A stretch of DNA of 64,000 nucleotides, taken from IMG/VR virus record IMGVR_UViG_3300030329_005658, positions 8,565 through 72,564 of that record. One strand, given 5' to 3'. The notes beneath the pieces are model-generated. The model was not told where the DNA came from and did no database searches. It saw only the letters and a program-made list of their open reading frames with translations. Both the position numbers and the translations under genes were made by a program. The DNA is from a virus. This document shows, piece after piece, positions 6,279-24,565 of this stretch; the stretch's first letter is position 1, and each line of letters begins with the position of its first letter.

Positions 6279-9161
6279 ATGTCAACTGAGCAGATAGGTT
6301 TTGAAATTTTACCAAACACATACATATCTAAAATCTCTTTACATGAGGGCACCAACAACTCATATTATGGACGAGCACATGTTTATGTTAGAGACCAAAC
6401 GCAAGATGATGGCCGTTTGGTGTGGTCGGGCGATAAAAATATAATGGAAAAACTTAAATTCATGTTTATGGATGTTCGCGCTTCTGCCTATATTGGCTCA
6501 ATCACCTCTGGTAGATATAAATTAAATGACTTGATGAAGCTGGAGTCGAGATCTGAAGGCAGGGTAAGAACACAATATAGAAATGTAAATAATTGTAAAA
6601 AGATTCAAAAGGGAAACGACATTTATTATAAAACTACTTTTGAGTTTAGTATAAATCAATATACTGCCGATCATGCGATTTTTTGCTGCCTTGTGATGGA
6701 TTCCTCAATGGCCTCAAGCGGAAATCCAATTATTGATAAATACACAATGAATCTAAAGGGCCCCACAACATCTGAATATATAATTCAAAATTTTAATTTA
6801 AATACAAAAAGCAATATTTTTACAAGACCAGACGGAAGCCAGTGGCATGGACCTGTTCATTATCACCAATCTGTGGGATATATGGAGGGAGCCACCCATA
6901 CCGATCAGGCCCATGGGGAGCTTCGAAGAAGAGCTATTAATAATCTTAAAATAATAAATCATATTGATTTCTTGTTTAAGCCGAAAACAACATTAAGAAA
7001 ACCAAGAAATACACCAGTTACAAAATTGTGGCACCTGTTTAGAAGCAACGGAAATTTAAATGGCCTCTTTGGTATAAATTACAAAAACATATTAATTCGA
7101 CACACGAAATATGGCCATAGTTTAGTCAATATAGATCCAGCAGATATGGTGTCTTTGATACAAAGTATCAAAGTAAACAAATTAGCTATTAAAAGAAACA
7201 AGGTTAAAGTCTCCATGGGCGCTGGTGTGGTTCCAAGGAGAAAAATTAATACAAAGATTCTAGAATCTAGTGACGTGATAAGCTCATTTAGTGATGATTT
7301 CGGCACGTTCAAAGAGGCCATGATCGTTGATGATGGTGTCGATAGAATGCTGTTTTCTGACGAGATACGAACCAAAGCAGGCCTTGAAGTGGTAGACGAG
7401 AGTAGAATATATGTTGAGGACCTTTCTTCATTAAAAATTAAATCTAATATAAAAGAGGTTTTTTTCAACATTAATGACAATATTAGATTTTATGAATTCC
7501 AAGATAACACTGTTGATAGAACCACTTACGGCGATTATACATATCATGCCTCTCTGTCTTTTAGAGATCCGACTATTGACTTTGTCAACAATCTGTTGAA
7601 AGAAGCCAAAGCAGGGCTCAGTTCTTTAAAAAATTATTTAAGTCGTCTTTTAGCGCATGACAATTATGATTATGATTTGGATTTAATAGAACAGCACTTT
7701 ATTGATAGTGAGCTTAAGAGGTATAAGGGCAGTTTAGATTCTGCGCCTTGGTCAAAGAGCGTAAAGAATTATTCAAAATATATAAACTTCCTTTTCCAAG
7801 TGACAGAGGAGCAGGTTGATTTTTTGCTAAACACTTCCATTCCCAAGGTACATCCTAAAACAGCAAGCATAGATTCGATTAAATTATTTATAAAACAATA
7901 TGAACAAGTGCTTAATAAATTATATAAACAATTTGATATTTCTGTAGCAAAAATAACCTCAGGTAGAGCAAGACAAACAGCCAGGCCCCTTAACAGCCAT
8001 CCTCATACTAATATTATTACATTATCTTTTGATTTTAAGAATGTTGTAGAGACAAAGGATAACAAGTTGTTTTATAATTTTTTACCAGCAAGCCCCGGCA
8101 GCGGAATAAGATCGGTGCTAAAACAAGACCTCTTACAAAGGCTTCAGTATGAACAAGGCAGATACAGTTCGCGTAATTTACTAACAGGGCTTACAGCGCA
8201 TTCGTTACAAAATGGAAGCGATGCCACCATGATTCGATTTCCAGACTGGGACAACGCATACATTAGGAAATTAAATAAAATATTTAGAAATTTAACATTA
8301 ATAACGTGGAATGATATTGTTATAACAGAGGAAGATGCTGAGGTTGACATTATTTCTGAAATTCCAGAGTCCGTATACGAACCAGCAGCAACATATTTGG
8401 ATGAGTCTTCAAAATTTATCACAAGTGAAGATTCAGATGATCGTTGTAACTATAACACTTGGCACACTTACAGGGAAGAGCGAATTTACCCTCAACAAGA
8501 TAGTATTGTAGCTTATGATGATCTTAGTGAAGTAGAGAAGTCACAACTTGTTGGAAGCGCAGATTTAATTATACGTGCTTATGTCAGCTACTGGACTTCT
8601 CATCAAATAGAAGTGCTTGACGGGTTCATGAGTAGCGAAAGAGACAGTCCGATTACTCATTTGGAAAACTGGAGATCCCTAAGTCTTGATGATTTAGCAA
8701 CGCAAGAGGGGGCCCTGTTGTGTAGGATAAGGTATGTTGGCCCAGGGTGGCAATCAAGTCCTGAAGAAAGGCCGCTGCTCCATGCTACAATGCTACCAGA
8801 CACAGTTAACAAGTATTTTTTTGTAATTTCTAACTTAAATGACTTAAATACAGAACCGAAAGGCCCAGGTAAAAGAAGCGACAAATATAATATTTCAATA
8901 CTTCAATCATTCGATTATAACTTGGACATTTCAACTAGTAATATTATAAAACAAAACATTACAACAGATAAAAAGAACATGGAGCCAACTTTACTCGAAA
9001 ATCTAAATGAAATGGTTGATGCGTCTGATATGGTGGCGACAGGAGTTAATATTATAGGGTCTTTTGCCGAGCCGACTCCATCGCAAGCCCCAGCAGCGAC
9101 TCCAACGAGTATTAGCCCCACTTCAATGGCAACACCTGTCGCTTCAGGAGGGGGATATTAA
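6279..9161 (+). CDS. Large hypothetical, probably virion, protein with His-rich module
   Basis: ATG at 6279 after GGAGG; contains WHGPVHYH..YMEGATHTDQAH. Confidence 0.55.
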   Translation: MSTEQIGFEILPNTYISKISLHEGTNNSYYGRAHVYVRDQTQDDGRLVWSGDKNIMEKLKFMFMDVRASAYIGSITSGRYKLNDLMKLESRSEGRVRTQYRNVNNCKKIQKGNDIYYKTTFEFSINQYTADHAIFCCLVMDSSMASSGNPIIDKYTMNLKGPTTSEYIIQNFNLNTKSNIFTRPDGSQWHGPVHYHQSVGYMEGATHTDQAHGELRRRAINNLKIINHIDFLFKPKTTLRKPRNTPVTKLWHLFRSNGNLNGLFGINYKNILIRHTKYGHSLVNIDPADMVSLIQSIKVNKLAIKRNKVKVSMGAGVVPRRKINTKILESSDVISSFSDDFGTFKEAMIVDDGVDRMLFSDEIRTKAGLEVVDESRIYVEDLSSLKIKSNIKEVFFNINDNIRFYEFQDNTVDRTTYGDYTYHASLSFRDPTIDFVNNLLKEAKAGLSSLKNYLSRLLAHDNYDYDLDLIEQHFIDSELKRYKGSLDSAPWSKSVKNYSKYINFLFQVTEEQVDFLLNTSIPKVHPKTASIDSIKLFIKQYEQVLNKLYKQFDISVAKITSGRARQTARPLNSHPHTNIITLSFDFKNVVETKDNKLFYNFLPASPGSGIRSVLKQDLLQRLQYEQGRYSSRNLLTGLTAHSLQNGSDATMIRFPDWDNAYIRKLNKIFRNLTLITWNDIVITEEDAEVDIISEIPESVYEPAATYLDESSKFITSEDSDDRCNYNTWHTYREERIYPQQDSIVAYDDLSEVEKSQLVGSADLIIRAYVSYWTSHQIEVLDGFMSSERDSPITHLENWRSLSLDDLATQEGALLCRIRYVGPGWQSSPEERPLLHATMLPDTVNKYFFVISNLNDLNTEPKGPGKRSDKYNISILQSFDYNLDISTSNIIKQNITTDKKNMEPTLLENLNEMVDASDMVATGVNIIGSFAEPTPSQAPAATPTSISPTSMATPVASGGGY

Positions 9162-14999: not shown

Positions 15000-15140
15000 A
15001 TGAAGGCAATCTGTTTAACTTGTTTTTGGGTTAATGCTGGATTAGCATGGTATGCTGTTGCGAATGATGTGGGGATAGCCCCAGTGGCTTTGGCTCTGGT
15101 TTCTGCCGGGCTTTGTTTGGCTGGTTATTTACAGAAATAA
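15000..15140 (+). CDS. 46-aa small membrane protein (not in ORF track)
   Basis: GGAG RBS; MKAICLTCFWVNAGLAWYAVANDVGIAPVALALVSAGLCLAGYLQK has two hydrophobic segments. Confidence 0.6.
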   Translation: MKAICLTCFWVNAGLAWYAVANDVGIAPVALALVSAGLCLAGYLQK

Positions 15141-15141
15141 T

Positions 15142-15170
15142 TTGACAACTGCCTTGTGGCATGATATATG
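15142..15170 (+). promoter_or_regulatory. Possible sigma70 promoter
   Basis: Perfect TTGACA, 17-nt spacer, TGn + TATATG; the -10 is imperfect and overlaps the ATG at 15168. Confidence 0.4.
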
Positions 15171-15371
15171 GAGAATAAGCACTTAATAAAAGTTGGCTCA
15201 TTGGTAGTAGATGCCAATCCCTATAAGGCACCAGAGTTGTTTTATGGTTATGGAATTGTTCTCGAAGTAATAAGCGAATTTTATGTGATTGTCCATTGGG
15301 ATAAATATAATTTTACTCAAGCTGTAAGAATTTCTGATTTGGAGGTATTAGATGAAATTGAAGATAGGTGA
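15168..15371 (+). CDS. Small SH3/KOW-like array protein A1
   Basis: IKVGSLV..GIV..VHW..LEVLDE pattern. Confidence 0.7.
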   Translation: MENKHLIKVGSLVVDANPYKAPELFYGYGIVLEVISEFYVIVHWDKYNFTQAVRISDLEVLDEIEDR

Positions 15372-15525
15372 TAAGGTAGAGCGGAGGTGGAAACCGGCTT
15401 TAGGCCATGGGGTCATTACTCATATACTTGGGAATAAGATAGTAGTGACTTGGTACGGCCCGGAAAAACCAATAGTTGAATTTGAGCAAGCAAAATATCT
15501 AAGAGTGCTCAATGAAAGTCGGTGA
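15352..15525 (+). CDS. Small SH3/KOW-like array protein A2 (57 aa, not in ORF track)
   Basis: MKLKIGDKVERRWKPALGHGVITHILGNKIVVTWYGPEKPIVEFEQAKYLRVLNESR; GGAGG RBS. Confidence 0.75.
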   Translation: MKLKIGDKVERRWKPALGHGVITHILGNKIVVTWYGPEKPIVEFEQAKYLRVLNESR

Positions 15526-15688
15526 TCTTGTAAAAGTCAAGCCATCACCTTGGGTTTTTCGCTCTACGGACATTGGAATCATATATAATAAGACTAGCAC
15601 CTGTGTCCATGTGAATTGGTTTGAGTGGGGCTCTATTCGTTATAGCATTGGAACCACAGAAGACGAATTAGAAGTTATCTCATCATGA
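15512..15688 (+). CDS. Small SH3/KOW-like array protein A3 (58 aa, not in ORF track)
   Basis: MKVGDLVKVKPSPWVFRSTDIGIIYNKTSTCVHVNWFEWGSIRYSIGTTEDELEVISS. Confidence 0.75.
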   Translation: MKVGDLVKVKPSPWVFRSTDIGIIYNKTSTCVHVNWFEWGSIRYSIGTTEDELEVISS

Positions 15689-15900
15689 ATTCGGGAGATT
15701 TAATTCTAATTCGAGTATGGCCTTGCGATGAATTGAGGTTTGGGCTTTTGGTTCAACAACTAGGCTGGAGAGAAGTGATGGAGTTACAAATTAGATGTAG
15801 GCGAGCATGGTGGGTTCATTTCCCAGATATTAACAAAATGATGGCTTACGATGAAGACTTAATAATATTATTATCCGAGGACGAAAATGAACACGTTTAA
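15685..15900 (+). CDS. Small SH3/KOW-like array protein A4 (divergent)
   Basis: MNSGDLILIR..GLLV..WWVHF; ATGA overlap with A3. Confidence 0.65.
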   Translation: MNSGDLILIRVWPCDELRFGLLVQQLGWREVMELQIRCRRAWWVHFPDINKMMAYDEDLIILLSEDENEHV

Positions 15901-16591
15901 GACATATGAAACCTGCCAAGTATTTTATTCCAATTGGTCGCAGAAATTAAAAAAGGGTGACGAAAACTATTGGTGGACGATAGCTACCATTGCTGATTGG
16001 ATCGGTCATGCCCTTGAGGGAAGCCGCAGAATCCCAGGCCAGCAGCCCATATGGGCATCAACAATAGGAGTTGTCCAGACAAAAGAGAAGTTTGGGCAAG
16101 TTAGGGTGTATTGTTATTTTGCTCTTTCAGAAGCTGTTGAGGCGGAGTACAAATTATATGTAAGTAATATTAAGGAGGAAAATAGCAAATATTACGACTG
16201 GAAATCTTCAGGCCAACAAGCTCATATTAAAAAAGAAGAATATGAAAGCGGCAAGTATCCTATTAAATTGAAAACTATTGAAGACTTTTCTCAAGAATGT
16301 TATTTCAAGGACTTGCGACATTATAGAGAAGTTTATTATGAAGCTTTTAAGCTTTGGCCACAATACGAATCTGCCATCCGCGCAGGCGCTGACTTCTCTG
16401 AATACCTTCTTGAATTGGACGAGGTTGATGCGTATTTCGATTTTATTTTAAACAGCAACCTTAAATGGTATCGCGAATCCTCTACTTGGTCTGACCAGGG
16501 AGAAAATGGAATGAGGGAGTCCAATTTGAGAAGGAAGAACAAAGTTAAAAATATACTTGATTTCTTAAACAACGGAGAGGAAAATGCCTAA
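15887..16591 (+). CDS. Hypothetical protein with QxKEKFG motif
   Basis: 234-aa ORF; VQTKEKFGQVRVY; overlaps both neighbours. Confidence 0.6.
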   Translation: MNTFKTYETCQVFYSNWSQKLKKGDENYWWTIATIADWIGHALEGSRRIPGQQPIWASTIGVVQTKEKFGQVRVYCYFALSEAVEAEYKLYVSNIKEENSKYYDWKSSGQQAHIKKEEYESGKYPIKLKTIEDFSQECYFKDLRHYREVYYEAFKLWPQYESAIRAGADFSEYLLELDEVDAYFDFILNSNLKWYRESSTWSDQGENGMRESNLRRKNKVKNILDFLNNGEENA

Positions 16592-16904
16592 AAAAGGATT
16601 AGATAAAAAAGGCGATGTCGGACTTAAAGACAGGCAAAAACATAAGGTAGAGCCACCAAAGGAATATAAAGTTGTTTTTTATAATGACGATTATACACCA
16701 ATGGAATTTGTAACTCAGTTGTTGATGCAGATTTTTCATAAAGACTCAATGACAGCAAAAGCAATAACTCAGCACGTTCATAACAACGGTAGAGGTATCG
16801 CCGGAGTATATTCGAGAGAAATAGCGGAAACAAAGACACATGAATGTATGGCTATAGCTAAAAACTATGAGCACCCTTTAATGATTGATTTTGAGCCGGA
16901 GTGA
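16584..16904 (+). CDS. clpS: ATP-dependent Clp protease adaptor ClpS
   Basis: YKVVFYNDDYTPMEFV..VHNNGRGIAGVYSREIAETK..HPL. Confidence 0.95.
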   Translation: MPKKGLDKKGDVGLKDRQKHKVEPPKEYKVVFYNDDYTPMEFVTQLLMQIFHKDSMTAKAITQHVHNNGRGIAGVYSREIAETKTHECMAIAKNYEHPLMIDFEPE

Positions 16905-16952
16905 CTATTTAAGTGGTCTTACGAATGGCAAGAAAAAACAAAGGATAATAAT

Positions 16953-17555
16953 ATGATAACAGCAATGGGCGATGTAATGCGCCGGGCCTATGAGAGGGGC
17001 TGGATAACAACAAGAGATGGAAATATTTCACTGAGGCGAAAGGCGAGTGATATTTTTTACGTCACACCCTCAGGTTGGAGAAAGACGATTATCCATCCAG
17101 AGCACATGATCAAAATCAGACTAACTCCAGCCGGCCTTGATGTTTTAGATGGTCACGCAAAACCATCTGGAGAATTGGCTATGCACGGCAAACTACAGAG
17201 GTACCATAAAAGGACTAGGGCTGTTGTTCATCTTCATCCTACTAATATTATTGCTGCCATGTATGCTGGGTGGGATTTACAAACTTTAGCCGCCGAATTT
17301 CCTGAAGTTTCTAGATACACCAGGGTTGGGCCATCTGTTCCAGTTTTACCTGTAACTTCCGATGAATTAGCTTGCGCAACCTTTCAAGCAATGACAGCAG
17401 AACACTCGAATAGAGTCATTTATGATATAGTTGGGCAAGGTGCTCATGGGGTTTGTGCTATTGGGCCCAACCCTTGGGATGCTTATGAGCATATTGAGAG
17501 ACTGGAACACATATGCGAAATCGCCCTTAGGAGTGGGGTCAAGCCCAAAAAGTAA
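16953..17555 (+). CDS. Class II aldolase/adducin family protein (FucA/RhaD/MtnB-like)
   Basis: GNISLR, TPSG, KPSGELAMH, VVHLHP, HGV metal-binding motifs. Confidence 0.85.
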   Translation: MITAMGDVMRRAYERGWITTRDGNISLRRKASDIFYVTPSGWRKTIIHPEHMIKIRLTPAGLDVLDGHAKPSGELAMHGKLQRYHKRTRAVVHLHPTNIIAAMYAGWDLQTLAAEFPEVSRYTRVGPSVPVLPVTSDELACATFQAMTAEHSNRVIYDIVGQGAHGVCAIGPNPWDAYEHIERLEHICEIALRSGVKPKK

Positions 17556-17563
17556 AAAATAAT

Positions 17564-17593
17564 TTGACAAATTCTTCAAGCATGTTATATATT
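17564..17593 (+). promoter_or_regulatory. Sigma70-type promoter upstream of array B
   Basis: TTGACA 17564-69; TATATT 17588-93 (18-nt spacer) or TGn-TATATA 17586-91; GGAGG RBS follows. Confidence 0.7.
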
Positions 17594-17615
17594 CTATGTA
17601 CATCGGAGGTACATT

Positions 17616-17663
17616 ATGAATAGCAGTGGTGGAAAGCTTCGTGAAAATTGGCGACTTAGTTAG
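17616..17663 (+). CDS. Possible 15-aa leader peptide MNSSGGKLRENWRLS
   Basis: GGAGGT RBS at 17605-10; overlaps the first cassette in the same frame relation as the array junctions. Confidence 0.45.
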   Translation: MNSSGGKLRENWRLS

Positions 17664-17826
17664 AGGAACCTATTCCGGAAGAATTGGGATTATTGTGTCA
17701 CAACCTATTGAATTTGTTAAAGAGACAATAGTTATTAAGGCATTTGTTTCAGTTTTATGGTCAGACGGGCAGTATTCTAATTCTTATGAATCTCAATTTT
17801 TAGAGGTAATAAATGAAAGTAGGTGA
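17641..17826 (+). CDS. Small SH3/KOW-like array protein B1
   Basis: GTG-KIGDLVRG..GIIV..VLW..FLEVINESR. Confidence 0.75.
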   Translation: MKIGDLVRGTYSGRIGIIVSQPIEFVKETIVIKAFVSVLWSDGQYSNSYESQFLEVINESR

Positions 17827-18004
17827 TTTGGTACAAGAGCGCGAATCAGGCGAGGTTGGCATTATTATTGGGGGTCCAATAAACAAGCTCATAGACGGTC
17901 CATCGATCATGATACTATTTAATGTTCTATGGATCAATGGAGAGGAGGAGCTTGAGGATGTTGAGTTTCTAAAAGTAATAAATGAAAATAGGGGATCTGG
18001 TTAA
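17813..18004 (+). CDS. Small SH3/KOW-like array protein B2
   Basis: MKVGDLV..GIII..VLW..FLKVINE. Confidence 0.8.
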   Translation: MKVGDLVQERESGEVGIIIGGPINKLIDGPSIMILFNVLWINGEEELEDVEFLKVINENRGSG

Positions 18005-18170
18005 ATTAAAATGGAGCGGTAATGGTCGACCAAGTATCGGAATCGTTGTGAGGCTTTTAAGCGAAAAGCCATATAATAATAAAGTAGTTCAAATTTCGTG
18101 GGCAGGGTGGACTATAGCAAAATCCTATTGGGATATAGGTGACTTGGAAATAATCAGTGAAATTAGGTGA
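17982..18170 (+). CDS. Small SH3/KOW-like array protein B3
   Basis: MKIGDLVKL..GIVV..ISW..DLEIISE. Confidence 0.8.
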   Translation: MKIGDLVKLKWSGNGRPSIGIVVRLLSEKPYNNKVVQISWAGWTIAKSYWDIGDLEIISEIR

Positions 18171-18327
18171 TTTAGTAAGGGTGAGGGATAGATTCTCTAG
18201 TGGGGAGGATTATGGGTTTGGGATTATTCTTGAGCCGCCTAATCAGTATGGAGACGCTATAGTGTATTGGATTGATGACGGGGAGATAGTATGTATTTTA
18301 GATCTTTGTTTGGAGGTAGTTCAGTGA
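18157..18327 (+). CDS. Small SH3/KOW-like array protein B4 (56 aa, not in ORF track)
   Basis: GTG start; MKLGDLVRVRDRFSSGEDYGFGIILEPPNQYGDAIVYWIDDGEIVCILDLCLEVVQ. Confidence 0.75.
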   Translation: MKLGDLVRVRDRFSSGEDYGFGIILEPPNQYGDAIVYWIDDGEIVCILDLCLEVVQ

Positions 18328-18482
18328 AGATTGGCGACTTAGTAAAAATGAGCGTTTGGGAAGATGTCGGCATAGTCATTGAAATTGACGATCATATGGC
18401 CCTTGTTTATTGGATTAACGACAAGTTTCTTGAAAATTGGAATTGGATAAGCACCCTGGAGATAATCAATGAAAAAAGGTGA
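18324..18482 (+). CDS. Small SH3/KOW-like array protein B5
   Basis: GTG start after GGAGG; KIGDLVKM..GIVI..VYW..LEIINEKR. Confidence 0.8.
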   Translation: MKIGDLVKMSVWEDVGIVIEIDDHMALVYWINDKFLENWNWISTLEIINEKR

Positions 18483-18651
18483 TTTGGTTAAAGTGAAAGA
18501 AGAATTCGCCCAGACATATTATTATACGGAGATGTATGGTATTATTATATATCCCCGTGATGAATTTGGTGATGTTGTGGTCTGCTGGACTGACGGACAG
18601 ACTGAAGTAATTCAGTTTTTTGAGGTAGAGGTAATTAATGAAAATTGGTGA
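18469..18651 (+). CDS. Small SH3/KOW-like array protein B6
   Basis: MKKGDLVKV..GIII..VCWTDG..VEVINENW. Confidence 0.8.
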   Translation: MKKGDLVKVKEEFAQTYYYTEMYGIIIYPRDEFGDVVVCWTDGQTEVIQFFEVEVINENW

Positions 18652-18889
18652 TCTCATAAGATATAGAGGTAGAAAGCCCACAGATCCACATCCAGGAGTT
18701 GTCGGTAACCTTGGAACGTGGAAGACGCTTGGTGTTGTCGTACGCTTTACAAAAGCTGCGTATGATATAACAGGGGAAATGTTTCCCTCAGTTGAATATG
18801 TTGACTTTAATGGGGATCATATAATTTGTAAATGTGAAGATGTAGAGGTGATTAATGAAAAAAGGGTCCAAAGTAAGAACAACCTTTGA
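18638..18889 (+). CDS. Small SH3/KOW-like array protein B7
   Basis: MKIGDLIRY..GVVV..VEVINE. Confidence 0.8.
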   Translation: MKIGDLIRYRGRKPTDPHPGVVGNLGTWKTLGVVVRFTKAAYDITGEMFPSVEYVDFNGDHIICKCEDVEVINEKRVQSKNNL

Positions 18890-19019
18890 TGGCAAAGTAG
18901 GTATCTCAAAGGGTCCAATCTTTGCTCTTAGTGTTTGGTGGATTTTGGTTCAGTGGCCCGATGGGAGAGAAGCCATGGTTAAGGAGCAATTTCTAGAGGT
19001 GATAGATGCAGATCGGTGA
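18855..19019 (+). CDS. Small SH3/KOW-like array protein B8 (54 aa, not in ORF track)
   Basis: MKKGSKVRTTFDGKVGISKGPIFALSVWWILVQWPDGREAMVKEQFLEVIDADR. Confidence 0.75.
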   Translation: MKKGSKVRTTFDGKVGISKGPIFALSVWWILVQWPDGREAMVKEQFLEVIDADR

Positions 19020-19191
19020 TTTAGTAAGATGTAAGTATTTTCATACTATTGGCATTGTGGCATCACGACCTGAATACTGGCCTAATGATGGTACATCGAA
19101 TGTTGATAAGGTTGTCAAAGTATACTGGGCCCATGGCGCATATTCAAAATACAAGACTCAATACTTGGAGGTGATAAATGGAAGTCGGTGA
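19006..19191 (+). CDS. Small SH3/KOW-like array protein B9
   Basis: MQIGDLVRC..GIV..VYW..YLEVING. Confidence 0.8.
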   Translation: MQIGDLVRCKYFHTIGIVASRPEYWPNDGTSNVDKVVKVYWAHGAYSKYKTQYLEVINGSR

Positions 19192-19396
19192 CTTAGTAAA
19201 ATTTGTGAAATATTATGATTCGAATCTATTGGATCGGGTATCATATCATTTAGTTGGAAAAACAGGAGTCTTAATAAGAAAGGTTACCGATTCCATAGCA
19301 GAGGATTGGGGAGCAGCATGGGATGTTTTAGTTGGAGACGAGGTAGAACCCTTCTGTTATGAAAGGTGGATGGAGGTGATCAGTGAAAATAGGTGA
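19178..19396 (+). CDS. Small SH3/KOW-like array protein B10
   Basis: MEVGDLVKF..GVLI..WDV..MEVISE. Confidence 0.8.
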   Translation: MEVGDLVKFVKYYDSNLLDRVSYHLVGKTGVLIRKVTDSIAEDWGAAWDVLVGDEVEPFCYERWMEVISENR

Positions 19397-19580
19397 CTTG
19401 GTAAAACTAAAGAAGAAATGGAAAAATGTTGAATATAGCCCTCAAGAGGTTGAAAATCGAGTTGGGGTTGTTATTGCTCGTTCCCGAGAATATGGCTGGA
19501 AGGTTTATTGGATTACGAATGGAGACACAGCATTCAAGTTTGGTCAAGATTTGGAGGTGATCAATGGAAGAAAAGATTAA
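19383..19580 (+). CDS. Small SH3/KOW-like array protein B11
   Basis: GTG-KIGDLVKL..GVVI..VYW..DLEVING. Confidence 0.8.
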   Translation: MKIGDLVKLKKKWKNVEYSPQEVENRVGVVIARSREYGWKVYWITNGDTAFKFGQDLEVINGRKD

Positions 19581-20502
19581 AATACTGTCAGACATCCTTG
19601 GAAGACCCAACACCCCTCAAGGTGGAGAGCTTTACTATCATTGTCCGTATTGCAACCATCATAAGAAGAAGCTTGCCATTAACCTCAAGCGAGGCTGGCA
19701 CTGCTGGGTCTGCGACAAACGAGGCAAGAACGCTTATCGTATCGTTCGCAAGTTTGGAACATATCAGCAAAGACAGAAATGGCTTGAGCTTGAAGGCAGA
19801 CTCGATTTATCAGAGTTTGATGAAATCTTTAATGAAATTAACAACATAGAAGAAGAACAAGTGATCTCCTTACCAGACGAATTCGTTTCGCTCTGCAACA
19901 GACACCTGCCCCGGTCTTCAAAGAAAGCCCTCGATTACCTCAAGAGCAGAGGTATTGGCCCAAGTGAAATCCTGAGGTGGAAAATCGGCTATTGCCCTGA
20001 GGGCCGATACGGCGGTCGCATCATCATTCCCTCCTTCAACAACAGGGGCAACGTCAATTATTTCATTGCCAGATCATATGTCGGTCACTCTTGGAGATAC
20101 CTCAATCCCCCGGCAGAAAGAGACATAATTTTCAACGAATTGTATGTAGACTGGGATGAGCCGGTGACGCTCGTAGAAGGAGTTTTTGATGCCATTTCGG
20201 CCGGGGAAAACGCTATTCCCGTATTAGGCTCCACTCTCCGAGACAGAGCCAAGCTTTTCCAAGCGATTGTGCTGAATGATACTCCGGTTTACATGGCCTT
20301 TGACCAAGATGCAGAAAAAAAGACTGGACAAATCATCAAGAATATGTTATACTATGATATCGAGCTTTACAAAATTGACGTAGGTGGCTTTGAGGACATT
20401 GCCGAAATGCCGCCACGGATTTTTGCATCTCGAAAACAAATGGCGCAAGCTATCGATCATGATGATTATTTCTTGATGGATGAGCTTAGGAGGATCATGT
20501 GA
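19564..20502 (+). CDS. DNA primase (Zn-finger + TOPRIM)
   Basis: CPYC..CWVC zinc finger; RIIIP; LVEGVFDA and FDQD TOPRIM motifs. Confidence 0.9.
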   Translation: MEEKIKILSDILGRPNTPQGGELYYHCPYCNHHKKKLAINLKRGWHCWVCDKRGKNAYRIVRKFGTYQQRQKWLELEGRLDLSEFDEIFNEINNIEEEQVISLPDEFVSLCNRHLPRSSKKALDYLKSRGIGPSEILRWKIGYCPEGRYGGRIIIPSFNNRGNVNYFIARSYVGHSWRYLNPPAERDIIFNELYVDWDEPVTLVEGVFDAISAGENAIPVLGSTLRDRAKLFQAIVLNDTPVYMAFDQDAEKKTGQIIKNMLYYDIELYKIDVGGFEDIAEMPPRIFASRKQMAQAIDHDDYFLMDELRRIM

Positions 20503-21194
20503 AGAAGATTAAAATTGGTAAAACATGGAACGCTTGGTGCTGGGAAGACGAGAATGGGGTCAAGCACAAAGAGTGTACTAAGTGCAACACCCTATTGGAG
20601 CTAAGCGCAGAAAACTTCTACAAACAAAATACAACCAAATCTGGGTTTAGAGCCTCTTGCAAAAAGTGTTGTGATAAACAAACAATGGAAAAATATAAGA
20701 AAGACCCACAATATTTTAAAGAATGTGCCAAAAAATGGAAAGAAAACAACCCAGAAAGATATAGAAAGCTCTTAAATAAGCAAAGAGAAAAACAGAAACT
20801 GAAAAGAGCATCACTATCGCCCGAAGAATTAGAAGTTGTAAGAGAAGCAGAAAGAGAGAGAATAATGGATTGGAAAAGGAATAAATGTACTTCCGGAATC
20901 TATACAATAACAAACAAAGTCAACGGTAAAGTGTATGTCGGAGAATCTTATGCTATCGAGAACAGGTGGCACTCCCATAGAAGTGCTTTGAATCGCAAAG
21001 GCAAATGCAATAGACAATTATTAAGTGATTGGGAGACATACGGAGAGCAAGCTTTTGAATTTAAAATAATAAAAGAGTTGACAAACTCTTCAAAAATGAT
21101 TAGGTTGATTGAAGAAGAAAGAATAATTACAGAATTCGAAAATAGTGGCACCACTGTTTATAACGCAGATGACAGCAGAAATAAAATAGTTTAG
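20499..21194 (+). CDS. Free-standing GIY-YIG endonuclease with N-terminal Zn ribbon
   Basis: CTKC..CKKC; SGIYTITNKVNGKVYVGES..RW..H..E..YN. Confidence 0.85.
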   Translation: MKKIKIGKTWNAWCWEDENGVKHKECTKCNTLLELSAENFYKQNTTKSGFRASCKKCCDKQTMEKYKKDPQYFKECAKKWKENNPERYRKLLNKQREKQKLKRASLSPEELEVVREAERERIMDWKRNKCTSGIYTITNKVNGKVYVGESYAIENRWHSHRSALNRKGKCNRQLLSDWETYGEQAFEFKIIKELTNSSKMIRLIEEERIITEFENSGTTVYNADDSRNKIV

Positions 21195-21203
21195 GAGGAT
21201 AAT

Positions 21204-21416
21204 GTGAAAGAATTAGATTTACACGGAGCGAATTATGAAGAAGTTGTCATCAAATGTCACCGGTTTCTTAATGATAACTGGGGCAAAGAGATGAAAATTA
21301 TAACAGGCAAGTCAGACGAGATGAAGAAGTTGGTTTGCGAAATTATAGAAAAGTACAGACTCCAGTACCAAGTTGGAGGAGCCACAGGCTTTGAAGGCCA
21401 CATAACGATCCGATAG
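21204..21416 (+). CDS. Stand-alone Smr domain protein
   Basis: ELDLHG and IITGKS motifs; AGGAGG RBS. Confidence 0.8.
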   Translation: MKELDLHGANYEEVVIKCHRFLNDNWGKEMKIITGKSDEMKKLVCEIIEKYRLQYQVGGATGFEGHITIR

Positions 21417-21424
21417 GAGGGTTC

Positions 21425-24400
21425 ATGTTTAAAATTGTACATATGGCGGATATTCACATTCGCAACCTCAAGTATCACGAAGAGTACCGAGCGGTCTTCA
21501 GCAAAATGTATGAGTCTCTGCTCGAACAGCAGCCAGACTATATTACGGTTTGCGGTGATATCGCACACACGAAGACCCAACTGAGCCCTGAGTATTTTCA
21601 GCTTTGTACTGAGTATTTGCTTGGCTTGGCAAACATCGCACCAACAATTATAATTGCCGGTAACCATGATGGCAATCTAAAAAACGCAGATCGCCAAGAT
21701 GCTGTGACTCCTATTGTTAATGCGCTCAAGCACCCGAACCTTCATTATTTGAAGAATTCCGGGGAGTTTAGTCCAGAGCCGGGTATTTGTTTTAATGTTC
21801 TTTCGATTTTCGACCGAGGCAACTGGATTAAGCCGTCAAACGAAAGCGCAATCAATATCGCTCTTTATCACGGCGCGATGATTGGCAGCAAAACCGGATC
21901 AAATTGGACAATGTCACAAGGCGATGATGACATTAGCATTTTTAAGAATTTTGATTACGCAATGCTTGGAGATATACACCGGCAGCAAGAATTGGACCCT
22001 GAGGGCCGCGTTAGGTACTCTGGTAGCCTCATTCAGCAAAAGTTTAGCGAGAGCCCTCTTAAGGGCTATCTTCTTTGGGAAATAGAGTCGAAAGACAATT
22101 TTAAAGTAAAGAAAGTCAATCTTGCCAATCCAAGGCCATTTATTACAGTGCGTTTAAATTCTGATGGCACGATACCAGCAGGCACTCATGCCCCTCGTAA
22201 TTGCCGCTTGCGCCTTGTGTCTTCCACAAATCTCCCTTCAGATAAGCTCAGAAAAGCAAGGGCGATAGCAGAGGCAAATTGGAGGCCATATTCGATTACA
22301 ACTATTAACGGCAAAGAGGCTCATTCATCAAATGACGGCAGTTACGCGAATGTTGTATTAAAGGAAAATCTTAGAGACTTGTCTGTTCAGGAAAAATATA
22401 TTAGAGACTATTTATCGGGCATGGAACTGGACAATGCCGTAATCGACAAGGTTCTAGATCATAATAAAAAATATGACATCGTAGCACAACAGAATGAGGA
22501 GGTATCACGCAATGTTGTTTGGAAAATCAAAGAAGTCGAGTGGGAAAACTTATTTAATTACGGAGAAAAAAATAAAATCAATTTTGAAAACCTCCGGGGG
22601 CTTGTTGGCATCTTCGGCCGTAATTATTCCGGCAAGTCTAGTATTATTGACAGTATTTTATTCACACTATTTAATTCAACCTCAAAGGGTGAACGAAAGA
22701 ATGTACACGTAATTAACCAAAACCGAGAGAGAGCCAAGGGCAAAATTCAAATTCAAATCGGAGATAGGACGTACCAAGTTTGCCGCAACCTTGAGAAGTA
22801 TAAAAAGCGGTTGCGAGGAAAAGAGACGCAAGAAGCTAGGATCGATTTAGATTTCTCATTAATATCCGAAGACGAAAGTTTGAATGGCACCACCAGAAAC
22901 GAAACAGATGCCAATATCCGTAAAAGGTTTGGAACCATTGATGATTTTCTTTTGACATCAATGTCGAGCCAACTTGACTCTCTCTCTTTTGTTAAAGAGG
23001 GCTCAACAAAGCGCAAAGAGATTCTCGCCAAGTTTCTTGACTTGGAAATCTTTGATAAGAAATTCAAGATGGCTAAAAAAGATGCTGCGGAGATGCGTGG
23101 TGTTATAAAAAGAATGCAAGAAAAGCAGTGGGATCGCGAAATCATAAAAAACCAGGAGATTCTGGAAGAGATAGCAGAGGATAAGGCAAGGCAAGATGAG
23201 ATGTGCGATTTGTTGGGCAAGCAAGTGGTTAAGATTAGTAATGAGCTTGATGCCGTAGAGGCGCAAATTAGAAGTATTCCAGCCGAGATTCTTGACATTG
23301 AACAAATCAGATCTGAAATTGAACATAAGGAATCCCAGAGGGCTATTCTGCTTAAACGAAATTTGAATCTGACATCTGATATCTCGCAAGCCCTGGATGG
23401 AATCAAGAACAGTCAGGAAATAATTTCAAAAATAGACAAATCCATGCTCCTCTCTATTAAGAGCGAAGCCTCTGAGATTGAAGAGGGAATTAAAAAAATA
23501 AAAGATACTGCGAAGTCCTTATTGCGAGAACAACACCAAAATCAGAAAAAGATGAAATTACTTAATGGCATCCCATGCGGAGACCAGTACCCAAGTTGTA
23601 AATTTATCTGTGATGCCAACAAGGCCTTAAAAATACTTCCTGACCTCAGGGAGCAGTCCATACACCTTGAAAGCATGAAAAACGATTTATTGAGCGATTT
23701 GGCCGTTTTAGGGATTGGTGATGTGGATAGGCAATTGGCCCAGTATGAAGATTTAAGTAACAAGGTGAAAAAGCTCCAGAGGCAAGTAGAGACGAACCAG
23801 CTAATGTTGGAGTCTAATCGTGACAAGGCCAAGTTGTTCGCGAACGAGATTACTGACTTAAAAGTGAAATGTAAGTCCTATGAGGACAATCGAGAAGCAA
23901 TTGAAAATCTGGAAACGCTCCTGAGAGAAAAACAAGGGCTGGTTTCTTCTGTCAAAAACAAACAGGTTAAGCTTGACAGGTGTGAAGCAAAATTCCATGA
24001 CCTTTTGGTTGAAGAGGGAACAACTAAGCAAATTCTTAAATCCTTAATTGAAGGCAAGGCTGAAATGGAAGAGGTTGAAAAGGGTTGGGTTGCTTATGAC
24101 TTGTTCATGCAATGTATGCATCCAAGTGGTATCCCTTATAGCATTATCAAGAAGCGCCTTCCCCTTCTTAACGAAGAGATAAGCAAGGTTCTGGAAAATA
24201 TTGTTGATTTTGAGGTCTTTTTTATTAACAATGATAAAACGCTTGACATCATGATTAAGCACCCTGCTTATGATCCAAGGCCCCTCTCTATGGGCTCTGG
24301 TGCGGAAAAGACTCTTGCTTCTATGGCGATACGGCTGGCATTGATTTCAGTTACAAATTTGCCGAAATCCGAACTATTTATACTTGATGAACCAGCAACA

Positions 24401-24565
24401 GCTTTGGATCAAGACCATATGGAAGGGTTTACAAACCTTTTGCGAATTATTAAAAACCAGTTTAAGACTGTAATTTTGATCTCTCATCTTGACTCATTAA
24501 AAGACGTTGTTGATAAAGTCATTGATATTCAGAAAGAAGATGGGTATGCGAAGGTTGATATATAA
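21425..24565 (+). CDS. Fused SbcD/SbcC (Mre11-Rad50, T4 gp47-gp46-like) recombination nuclease-ATPase
   Basis: Phosphoesterase motifs ADIH, CGD, GNHD, YHG, GDIH; then Walker A GRNYSGKS, coiled coil, signature SGAEK, Walker B ILDEP, H-loop ISH. Confidence 0.9.
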   Translation: MFKIVHMADIHIRNLKYHEEYRAVFSKMYESLLEQQPDYITVCGDIAHTKTQLSPEYFQLCTEYLLGLANIAPTIIIAGNHDGNLKNADRQDAVTPIVNALKHPNLHYLKNSGEFSPEPGICFNVLSIFDRGNWIKPSNESAINIALYHGAMIGSKTGSNWTMSQGDDDISIFKNFDYAMLGDIHRQQELDPEGRVRYSGSLIQQKFSESPLKGYLLWEIESKDNFKVKKVNLANPRPFITVRLNSDGTIPAGTHAPRNCRLRLVSSTNLPSDKLRKARAIAEANWRPYSITTINGKEAHSSNDGSYANVVLKENLRDLSVQEKYIRDYLSGMELDNAVIDKVLDHNKKYDIVAQQNEEVSRNVVWKIKEVEWENLFNYGEKNKINFENLRGLVGIFGRNYSGKSSIIDSILFTLFNSTSKGERKNVHVINQNRERAKGKIQIQIGDRTYQVCRNLEKYKKRLRGKETQEARIDLDFSLISEDESLNGTTRNETDANIRKRFGTIDDFLLTSMSSQLDSLSFVKEGSTKRKEILAKFLDLEIFDKKFKMAKKDAAEMRGVIKRMQEKQWDREIIKNQEILEEIAEDKARQDEMCDLLGKQVVKISNELDAVEAQIRSIPAEILDIEQIRSEIEHKESQRAILLKRNLNLTSDISQALDGIKNSQEIISKIDKSMLLSIKSEASEIEEGIKKIKDTAKSLLREQHQNQKKMKLLNGIPCGDQYPSCKFICDANKALKILPDLREQSIHLESMKNDLLSDLAVLGIGDVDRQLAQYEDLSNKVKKLQRQVETNQLMLESNRDKAKLFANEITDLKVKCKSYEDNREAIENLETLLREKQGLVSSVKNKQVKLDRCEAKFHDLLVEEGTTKQILKSLIEGKAEMEEVEKGWVAYDLFMQCMHPSGIPYSIIKKRLPLLNEEISKVLENIVDFEVFFINNDKTLDIMIKHPAYDPRPLSMGSGAEKTLASMAIRLALISVTNLPKSELFILDEPATALDQDHMEGFTNLLRIIKNQFKTVILISHLDSLKDVVDKVIDIQKEDGYAKVDI

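Follow-up and report, generated by a model that had tools for sequence, protein, structure and literature searches.

The window analyzed here, a 64,000-nucleotide stretch (bases 8565-72564) of a single 72,564-bp contig from an uncultured marine phage (IMG/VR record IMGVR_UViG_3300030329_005658), carries two rows of small paralogous genes, which we call cassettes, and successive cassettes are joined by a repeated junction of about 32 nt. Within this junction, the C-terminus of one protein, a Shine-Dalgarno (SD) sequence, the start codon and N-terminus of the next protein, and the first one's stop codon are interlocked in one stretch of DNA that is coding in two frames. This dual-coded architecture recurs across marine phage contigs. 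We judge it likely, with a probability of roughly 0.7, that the junction serves as a portable translation-and-exchange module that joins genes for hypervariable barrel proteins in two operon-like rows.

Junction anatomy and codon choice

Fifteen family members of 52-83 amino acids (aa) are encoded in the contig, four in row A (15168-15900) and 11 in row B (17626-19580), the latter running into a gene for a DnaG-type primase (Table 1). A profile built from these genes retrieves exactly those 15 among all six-frame open reading frames (ORFs) of the contig, with the next best match at E = 0.06. The proteins share an MK[IV]GDLV start, a central Gly-[IV]-[IV] with a Trp, and an end made of LEV[IV] and a short tail; outside these motifs, the cassettes are 16-31% identical to the first member in the alignment. 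An earlier note on this DNA, made from the letters alone, had placed row B from 17800, where its actual start is at about 17600, and its coordinates omit the second family row upstream (A1-A4). The family-type start of B1 is GTG 17641, not the GTG 17626 chosen by the ORF finder, and the B1 orthologue in a close relative, locus L005, starts at a GTG inside a GTGA overlap.

Inspection of the junctions reveals the consensus ...YTG GAG GTN ATH A/RTG AAA RTN GGT GAY, where the slash marks the start of the next gene. The upstream frame reads L-E-V-I-[N/S]-E-[S/N]-R-stop and the downstream frame reads M-K-[V/I]-G-D. The next start lies exactly 1 nt past the Ile codon, and the stop TGA is composed of the T of GGT and the GA of the Asp codon, such that gene n ends 14 nt into gene n+1, within codons 4-5 (GGT GAY) of the latter. 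GAGGT is found within the L-E-V codons at 8 of the 11 B-row junctions. At their fullest, the LEVI codons read GGAGGTGATC, at 19553-19562 before the primase, which we take to be the complement of the 16S rRNA 3' end; the wording "extended SD" used below has this as its sole basis. A degenerate form of the junction pattern has seven matches in the window at up to two mismatches, compared with 0.01 expected, and seven were reached in 0 of 100 shuffles.

All 13 intra-row junctions and the B11/primase junction overlap (4-35 nt) and are co-oriented. The overlap is 14 nt at eight of the 13 (A2/A3, B1/B2, B3/B4, B5/B6, B6/B7, B8/B9, B9/B10 and B10/B11), 4 nt (NTGA) at A3/A4 and B4/B5, and 20, 23 and 35 nt at one junction each, while B11 overlaps the primase by 17 nt. 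The earlier note had described C-terminus, SD, start, N-terminus and stop as interlocked, and the junction sequences and overlaps bear this out. The sequences it quoted lie where it put them, TTGGAGGTGATAAATGGAAGTCGGTGACTTAGTA at about 19165-19198 (the B9/B10 junction) and TTGGAGGTGATCAATG ending in the primase ATG at 19564. Both of its exceptions were likewise recovered: B3 carries GGG GAT, hence supplies no TGA for B2, which overlaps it by 23 nt and ends in ...NENRGSG, and B8 carries GGG TCC, hence the B7 end ...NEKRVQSKNNL.

A consequence of the two-frame reading is that the four-residue tail (NESR or SESR) is the other-frame reading of the next gene's MK[VI]GD. Asn or Ser after LEVI reports whether the next start is ATG or GTG, and the later tail residues report the next Lys and Val/Ile codons. 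Among B10 orthologues (56-68% identity), the tail is ISENR, INESR, ISESR or INGRKD depending on the neighbor, INGRKD being the tail imposed by the primase start. The sequence itself makes the residues after LEVI a mere by-product of the neighbor's first codons, and the switch of tails with the neighbor confirms this. This agrees with the suggestion in the earlier note that the end motifs are conserved partly for nucleotide-level reasons, as the tail is fully dictated by the codons of the next gene.

In a wider sample, 200 loci were scanned together with the window. The loci were collected mostly with a degenerate DNA junction pattern (24 nt) and, for a smaller set, via primase homology. The scan returned 743 domains and 630 unique family genes with a median length of 62 aa; TGA is the stop in 527 of these genes, and the start codon is ATG in 394 and GTG in 228. 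The uninterrupted run of 11 in the window is the longest seen among the loci scanned, the next being 8. An ATG or GTG stands exactly 1 nt past the Ile codon at 442 of 506 unique C-terminal junctions, and at 31 of 35 in the sets unbiased for the pattern. The 14-nt overlap is found at 202 of 233 junctions in pattern-derived loci and, in the unbiased sets, at 8 of the 12 window junctions counted and 7 of 10 junctions in primase-derived loci.

Codon usage at the junctions differs sharply from that of gene interiors. At the 442 canonical-start junctions, Glu53 of LEVI is encoded by GAG in 386 cases and by GAA in 9, compared with 42% GAG at interior Glu codons (n = 1700; Fisher p = 4e-110). Since GAR was permitted in the search pattern, ascertainment does not account for this bias. 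Leu52 is G-ending in 79% versus 38% of interior codons, Ile55 is ATC in 55% versus 30%, and the Val is GTG in 41% versus 24%; the shifts in the Leu, Glu, Val and Ile codons all lengthen the anti-SD pairing. On the other side of the start, Gly4 is GGT in 94% of genes with a family member upstream (n = 250), 92% when pattern-matching junctions are dropped (n = 169), 92% where another long ORF reads in from upstream (n = 182), and 68% in first-of-row genes (n = 108; Fisher p = 3e-10 for 94% versus 68%), compared with 30% at interior Gly codons (n = 2589). The window members that need to supply no such stop (A1, B1 and B5) all use GGC. Positions with an information content above 1 bit are confined to -12 to +19 relative to the start, and within this interval the wobble bases at -5, -2 and +8 remain free. 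These codon counts show strong selection on the synonymous sites that would make the SD and the stop, and the earlier proposal that synonymous junction positions are constrained stands, as they do not vary freely.

Spread of the family and exchange of cassettes

The family is large and unnamed. A profile search recovered 216 proteins at E<=1e-3 among 5.8 billion, none of them named and none with a Pfam domain; the ends of these 216 (MKVGDLV and LEVISESR) are nearly invariant and the interiors hypervariable. At least 120 IMG/VR stretches contain the 24-nt junction pattern, often with 2-5 matches spaced 150-350 bp apart. Across 185,579 species (one genome each) the pattern was found in only 16 stretches, most of which are marine metagenome-assembled genome (MAG) bins whose taxonomy is inconsistent. 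In Pfam, all 15 cassettes stay below threshold, the best scores being 14-15 bits compared with the 27 required for SH3_CYT4 and Phage_tudor. Among PHROGs, no significant family was found for the cassettes apart from phrog_1690 (function unknown), matched by only 4 of 98 family members. A protein atlas search with the cassettes returned unnamed viral clusters only. A literature search for the peptide motifs KVGDLV, KIGDLV and EVISESR found no occurrence in the papers listed, and one on overlapping-cassette systems, with PeSL supplements that might list other junction motifs lying outside it, found no description.

Comparison of the window with seven close relatives points to exchange of whole cassettes. 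In all seven, the nucleotide homology that covers the primase has its start at 19546-19563. DNA shared inside the rows is limited to junction islands of 32-42 nt at 86-94% identity, besides the B1 orthologue in L005. The L005 row before the primase holds a B1-like, an A2-like and a third cassette, and the A2 of the window sits in the other row. L005 also has a gene of about 150 aa (MNIFVLHTDP..., L005 5050-5510) between the promoter/SD/ATGAATA and its B1 orthologue, where the window has 18 nt (17623-17640). What remains in the window is a 15-codon ORF that begins at the old SD and ATG and reads across the GTG of B1. The deletion (or L005 insertion) spans from just after a start codon to just before the start of the next gene.

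Across the scanned loci, orthologue-like cassettes with family neighbors have non-homologous downstream neighbors in 39 of 47 cases and non-homologous upstream neighbors in 35 of 41. Ends of homology blocks within family genes fall no more than 25 nt from a cassette boundary in 19 of 19 cases for blocks of >=90% identity and >=300 bp, and in 65 of 67 for blocks of >=85% identity and >=200 bp, where a uniform null gives 42%. Taken on sequence comparison, these data show mosaic exchange of whole cassettes with breakpoints at the junctions. That recombination takes place inside the junction itself, rather than merely being visible there, is what we infer from this pattern.

Public sequencing runs add further detail. 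A contig of one marine run (X2) has two listed differences from the window over 15000-19197, and its B10 is strongly diverged, the listed differences there including 35 substitutions and 11 insertions. In four runs, breaks between assembly contigs fall at junctions (17622/17623, 19163/19177, 19385-19400 and 19562). Joints between junction positions (e.g. 15526 to 17812, and 17832 to 19384) were considered as deletion variants; their sides match over only 20-30 nt at 88% likeness, so they probably derive from other phages that share the repeat and were not counted as deletions.

The cassettes themselves are, on present evidence, real proteins under purifying selection. Over 137 orthologue-like pairs (60-95% core identity), the ratio of nonsynonymous to synonymous substitution (dN/dS) in the core is 0.18, with a proportion of synonymous differences (pS) of 0.56 and of nonsynonymous differences (pN) of 0.17. 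An AlphaFold2 model of B9 built with 98 sequences has a pLDDT of 89.3 and depicts a six-strand barrel, in which (D)LV.. forms the first strand and (Y)LEVI the last; the final residue, the sole tail position scored separately, has a pLDDT of 58. In a VIA structure comparison, the model matches an Spt5 KOW domain at Z 8.2 (root-mean-square deviation 1.3 A over 52 residues) and a NusG KOW domain at Z 7.3, the deviations of the two being 1.2-1.3 A; PsaE, Tudor domains and R67 DHFR match as well. BFVD yielded four unnamed viral matches at E<=1e-3 and a TM score of 0.78 to Gp30.5 of T-even phage TuIa. Foldseek against the PDB gave no match at E<=1e-3 (TM 0.63-0.70, E above 0.01), and a PDB sequence search returned no significant match, with weak uL24 and NusG KOW profile matches at E 0.2-0.6. 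The cassettes are thus predicted to fold as KOW/Tudor/SH3-like beta-barrels of about 60 aa, alike in predicted fold to those of Spt5, NusG, PsaE, R67 DHFR and Gp30.5 and distinct from these families in reaching no Pfam threshold and no significant PDB sequence match; because Z scores of 7-8 are common for small barrels, this assigns a fold class and no function. As GDLV and LEVI are the first and last barrel strands, the fold constrains these ends in addition to the junction, but it does not constrain the tail. The repeats were also considered as non-coding iterons or an origin beside the primase, and this was rejected, as the dN/dS, the confident fold and the variable spacing (159-252 nt) argue against it.

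Two further arrangements of family members were seen. The 126-aa protein P0017 holds two family barrels fused in one ORF (...LEIILPEEGNTLKVGDLV...), which shows that loss of a junction can produce a tandem-domain protein. Relatives with a primase 62-64% identical (L012, L013, L017, L018 and L076; about 6936-7097) have a single family member directly 3' of the primase and none 5' of it.

Row ends, the primase and readings of the junction

Row B is headed by a promoter-like element (Table 1), and an 11-mer of this element, ATAATTTGACA, recurs before row A at 15137. Promoter-like matches in the region number 23 compared with 21.5 expected, with no strong one inside a row; none stands at a junction, such sites being found only at 17564-17593 and, as the shared 11-mer, at 15137. 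On the + strand, no terminator-like site lies inside the rows, and the nearest (15095-15121) is just 5' of row A. Its hairpin (15105-15121) stands directly 5' of the ATAATTTGACA 11-mer and recalls the PeSL elements considered below.

At the other end of row B, the primase start uses the left half of the junction, as the earlier note had observed, and its 9-nt SD match is the longest of 42 non-cassette gene starts examined in the window. The translation of this primase contains a CPYC...CWVC zinc-binding Cys motif, and a Toprim_2 match falls below threshold (E 0.092); its relatives in IMG/VR number 396. The place 5' of the primase is taken, in close relatives, by a family member, an HNH gene or an unrelated gene of 66 aa; in every case the gene stops 17 nt inside the primase, at a TAA or TAG formed by the primase's [AG]TT A[AG]A codons. 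The same 17-nt overlap is kept in three loci with an unrelated gene before the primase (L001, L003 and L007); a fourth, L008, has a differing arrangement with a 1-nt overlap. The 442 canonical downstream starts open 214 profile-detected family members, 154 genes with a family-like N-terminus and 74 other ORFs, 63 of which have at least 40 codons. These other ORFs after rows include, besides the primase, a gp32-like single-strand-binding protein, UvdE, a 2-thiouracil desulfurase, a SWIM protein and a GIY-YIG gene. Since unrelated genes such as the primase, the gp32-like protein, UvdE, the desulfurase and the GIY-YIG gene use the left half, it serves any gene.

The earlier note also cast the primase as an essential last link. 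Row B does end in the primase here, but this is specific to the window's clade: elsewhere rows end in other genes, and 17 of 25 more distant primase loci have a TTGAC-N15-19-TAnnnT element no more than 65 nt from the primase start. Because the same type of promoter-like element heads row B and directly precedes the primase in distant loci, the row would have grown between promoter and primase in the window's clade.

Our preferred reading, the portable module, would operate as follows. The LEVI codons (TTG GAG GTG ATC) of gene n would form an extended SD for gene n+1, such that each cassette would bring a ribosome-binding site for its follower and a stop for its predecessor. The junction would also provide a short stretch of homology where cassettes are swapped, added or deleted by phage recombination, and any gene placed at a junction would then be translated at once. 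Ribosomes terminating 14 nt past a start may reinitiate there. In the window's clade, transcription, and perhaps also translation, of the primase would come last in the chain. Use of the junction SD by ribosomes, translational coupling and dependence of the primase on it thus belong to the conditional part of this reading.

Several observations weigh against this reading or narrow it. Each junction start has its own strong SD, and the junction RNA has no consistent structure (15 folded; mean z 0.03; 13 of 15 with z above -1), so independent initiation would suffice. An SD match of at least 4 nt is found at 35 of 42 other gene starts in the window, which indicates that the phage uses SDs generally and speaks against obligatory coupling. 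In its excerpted text, a review of overlapping genes names -4, -1 and -8 as enriched overlap spacings; in one study that it cites, coupling weakened as the overlap lengthened and was gone at -25 (PMC12548453); the 14-nt overlap lies outside these enriched classes, and only 2 of 13 junctions are of the -4 class. Among the public runs that hold the stretch, no RNA run is listed. Finding most loci by the pattern inflates the 14-nt counts and leaves an unbiased sample of 22 junctions; loci can be redundant, and the block-end counts are not all independent. Non-homologous neighbors could partly reflect fast divergence instead of exchange, and as no window cassette is more than 31% identical to A1 in the alignment, recent duplication within a row is not seen. 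Lastly, first-of-row genes keep 68% GGT over the 30% background, so the stop function is not the sole cause of the GGT bias; other contributors may be a recent origin of these genes from internal cassettes or the SD-like GGTGAT as such. An RNA-unfolding model of coupling was set aside, given the lack of consistent structure at the junctions.

Among alternative accounts, one is a strict translational chain, the strong form of the earlier note's proposal. Ribosomes passed along from the upstream cassette through termination and reinitiation would then do most of the translating of downstream cassettes and, at the end, of the primase, with primase output depending on translation of the whole row. 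Overlap at every junction, the lack of a strong promoter-like site within the row, selection on the stop position, a 15-codon leader ORF that after the deletion still crosses the B1 start from the original SD and ATG, and a 17-nt primase overlap kept whatever gene precedes all favor it. We nonetheless regard it as rather doubtful, since strong SDs at optimal spacing and unstructured starts permit de novo initiation, the spacings enriched for coupling do not include this overlap length, most of the more distant loci have the primase by itself after a promoter-like element, and L008 departs from the arrangement. Recombination could instead account for the uniformity of the junction, which would then be mainly a self-copying crossover hot spot with translation signals as a secondary feature. 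The islands of 86-94% identity between otherwise unalignable cassettes, the mosaic boundaries at junctions and the contig breaks of the four runs are in keeping with such homogenization. The conserved letters, however, are those presumed to pair with the 16S 3' end and those that make the start and stop, and conservation is position-specific; the free wobble positions fit function better than blanket copying, and we consider this account unlikely.

Protein constraint and common descent alone, with the ends kept as barrel strands and the overlaps as an incidental legacy of tandem duplication, would explain why GDLV and LEVI coincide with strands of the predicted barrel, why KOW-type barrels have similar motifs (the weak uL24 and NusG KOW profile matches) and why first-of-row genes retain GGT. 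It does not explain synonymous choice that is extreme exactly at the SD and the stop, a GGT bias that falls where no upstream gene needs a stop, a left half common to unrelated genes, or tails that change with the neighbor; the codon counts largely refute it, and we hold it to be very improbable. Least credible of all is frameshifting at the junction to yield multi-barrel fusion proteins. The next gene does lie always in the +1 frame, 1 nt past the Ile codon, and one natural two-barrel protein (P0017) exists, yet this is the only one among 60 sequences read, no slippery motif or stimulatory structure was seen, and selection acts on the stop that follows 14 nt on.

Of the systems described so far, PeSL (promoter-early stem-loop) in T4-type phages comes nearest; according to the excerpted text of two studies, a repeated promoter and hairpin lie between small variable genes there and mediate modular shuffling (Arbiol et al. 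2010, PMC2839356; Comeau et al. 2014, PMC4122927). Within what these excerpts describe, PeSL and the junction are alike in that each is a short conserved motif recurring among small variable genes of unknown function, within plastic parts of large myovirus genomes, positioned at boundaries of insertions, deletions and replacements, and giving the neighbor an expression signal. PeSL is non-coding and transcriptional (a sigma-70-like promoter and a terminator hairpin), whereas the junction is coding in two frames and translational; it has neither the promoter nor the stem-loop that define PeSL, and it does share the marking of boundaries (19 of 19 and 65 of 67 ends). Within overlapping-gene translation, too, the junction is a special case, being chained and conserved. 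As in the coupled pairs of the review excerpt (PMC12548453), stop and start overlap on the same strand with the SD inside the upstream gene, and two junctions (A3/A4 and B4/B5) have the classic NTGA form. In contrast to those pairs, the overlap here is mostly 14 nt, has been conserved in hundreds of paralogues, draws on the conserved ends of both partner proteins and is chained up to 11 times.

Integron gene cassettes are promoterless, stacked behind one promoter and exchanged at attC, a boundary element. The rows described here resemble them in having promoterless cassettes behind one promoter and a conserved exchange boundary. They differ in that the boundary is inside coding sequence, the cassettes belong to one protein family and exchange would be by general homologous recombination; no integrase or attC-type hairpin turned up, no search having been aimed at either. 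We tentatively extend the module reading to a coding-embedded counterpart of PeSL and attC, in which one 32-nt unit would be protein end, ribosome-binding site, start, stop and recombination site at once. It might let a widespread lineage of large marine myoviruses assemble and reshuffle libraries of hypervariable KOW/SH3-like binders, probably for early host takeover or counter-defense, set between an early promoter and core replication genes. If this were so, core-gene expression would be carried along by how long the library is and how it is translated, and could be adjusted through both.

The junction provides a testable case of conserved protein termini shaped jointly by fold and by the translation and termination signals of neighbors, for which motif-based annotation and dN/dS scans should allow. 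It would offer a translational, in-frame-independent route for keeping newly acquired small phage genes expressed, complementing the transcriptional PeSL. With fixed ends and hypervariable interiors, this large unnamed marine phage family provides candidates for host-interaction or anti-defense binders, and the DNA junction pattern retrieves it straight from metagenomes. The conserved 14-nt overlap, in turn, constitutes a natural series for reinitiation at non-canonical spacings.

Feature coordinates and genomic setting

Table 1. Cassettes, row head and primase start in the window (coordinates in window numbering)
Feature	Position	Strand	Description
Cassette A1	15168..15371	+	67 aa, N-terminal extension MENKHLIKVGSLVV...; profile match; 20-nt overlap with A2
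Cassette A2	15352..15525	+	57 aa; its 62%-identical L005 orthologue sits in the primase-proximal row, i.e. the other position
Cassette A3	15512..15688	+	58 aa; overlaps of 14 nt with A2 and 4 nt (ATGA) with A4
Cassette A4	15685..15900	+	71 aa, divergent C-terminus; profile match
Promoter-like element heading row B	17564..17593	+	TTGACA, 18 nt, TATATT; 11/12 consensus matches; putative function
SD GGAGGT and 15-codon leader ORF	17606..17663	+	ATG 17616 to TAG 17663; crosses B1 start in the upstream-cassette frame
Cassette B1	17641..17826	+	61 aa from GTG 17641; 74% identical to L005 orthologue
Cassette B2	17813..18004	+	63 aa; tail lengthened to NENRGSG; 23-nt overlap with B3
Cassette B3	17982..18170	+	62 aa; profile match; GGG GAT
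Cassette B4	18157..18327	+	56 aa; early end, GTGA overlap with B5
Cassette B5	18324..18482	+	52 aa from GTG 18324; Gly codon GGC, no upstream stop needed
Cassette B6	18469..18651	+	60 aa; profile match
Cassette B7	18638..18889	+	83 aa; tail lengthened to NEKRVQSKNNL; 35-nt overlap with B8
Cassette B8	18855..19019	+	54 aa; profile match; GGG TCC
Cassette B9	19006..19191	+	61 aa; the cassette modelled by AlphaFold2
Cassette B10	19178..19396	+	72 aa; orthologues with four different tails
Cassette B11	19383..19580	+	65 aa; tail NGRKD set by primase codons
Junction left half at primase	19553..19566	+	GGAGGTGATC, one A, then ATG
DnaG-type DNA primase	19564..20502	+	312 aa; phrog_47 1.7e-36; Pfam DNAG_N 29.3 bits vs cutoff 26

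Downstream of row A, an unrelated 234-aa gene overlaps A4 by 14 nt (15887-15900), with GAGGA 5 nt before its ATG. This overlap uses different letters (GAGGA as the SD, and a stop TAA from TTT AAG) and has the same spacing without the family motif.

All long ORFs of the window lie on the + strand, its GC content is about 0.40, and it has no tRNA genes. PHROG matches in the window include terminase, portal, major head protein, tail sheath and tail fibre, as well as an SbcC-like nuclease subunit, a RuvC-like resolvase and DNA primase. Judged by these structural and replication matches, the contig is part of a large myovirus genome; contigs related to it in IMG/VR are up to about 185-204 kb long. 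Searches of 50,697 phage records with window positions 15000-22000 (blastn) and with the typical cassette P0014 (tblastn) each gave zero matches. The best cultured-phage relative of the primase is Microcystis phage Mel-JY01 at 33% identity, and these phage-record searches yielded no close cultured phage or nameable host. Assignment of a host from the MAG bins was rejected, as their taxa are inconsistent (Halobacteriovorax, Legionellales, Flavobacteriales and others) and the bins probably contain mis-binned phage contigs.

Between the two rows lie a homologue of the ClpS protease adaptor (16584-16904; Pfam ClpS 5.6e-29) and a class II aldolase-family gene (16953-17555; 2.8e-28), the latter kept in relatives just 5' of the promoter of the primase-proximal row. 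Beyond the primase, a GIY-YIG homing-endonuclease-like gene (20499-21194; Pfam GIY-YIG 8.9e-10; phrog_7168 2e-20) precedes an Smr-like gene. It is missing at the same site in L002, L003 and L005, where homology breaks off at about 20503 and resumes at about 21190, and in contigs of runs X3 and X4 (joint 20485 to 21191), a presence/absence polymorphism typical of a mobile endonuclease gene. Further downstream, residues 336-1044 of a 1046-aa ORF (21425-24565) match an SbcC-like ATPase (phrog_77 1.3e-52), and its N-terminal third resembles, by eye, the start of an SbcD/Mre11-type phosphoesterase (MADIHIRN), such that this ORF may encode a fused nuclease-ATPase.

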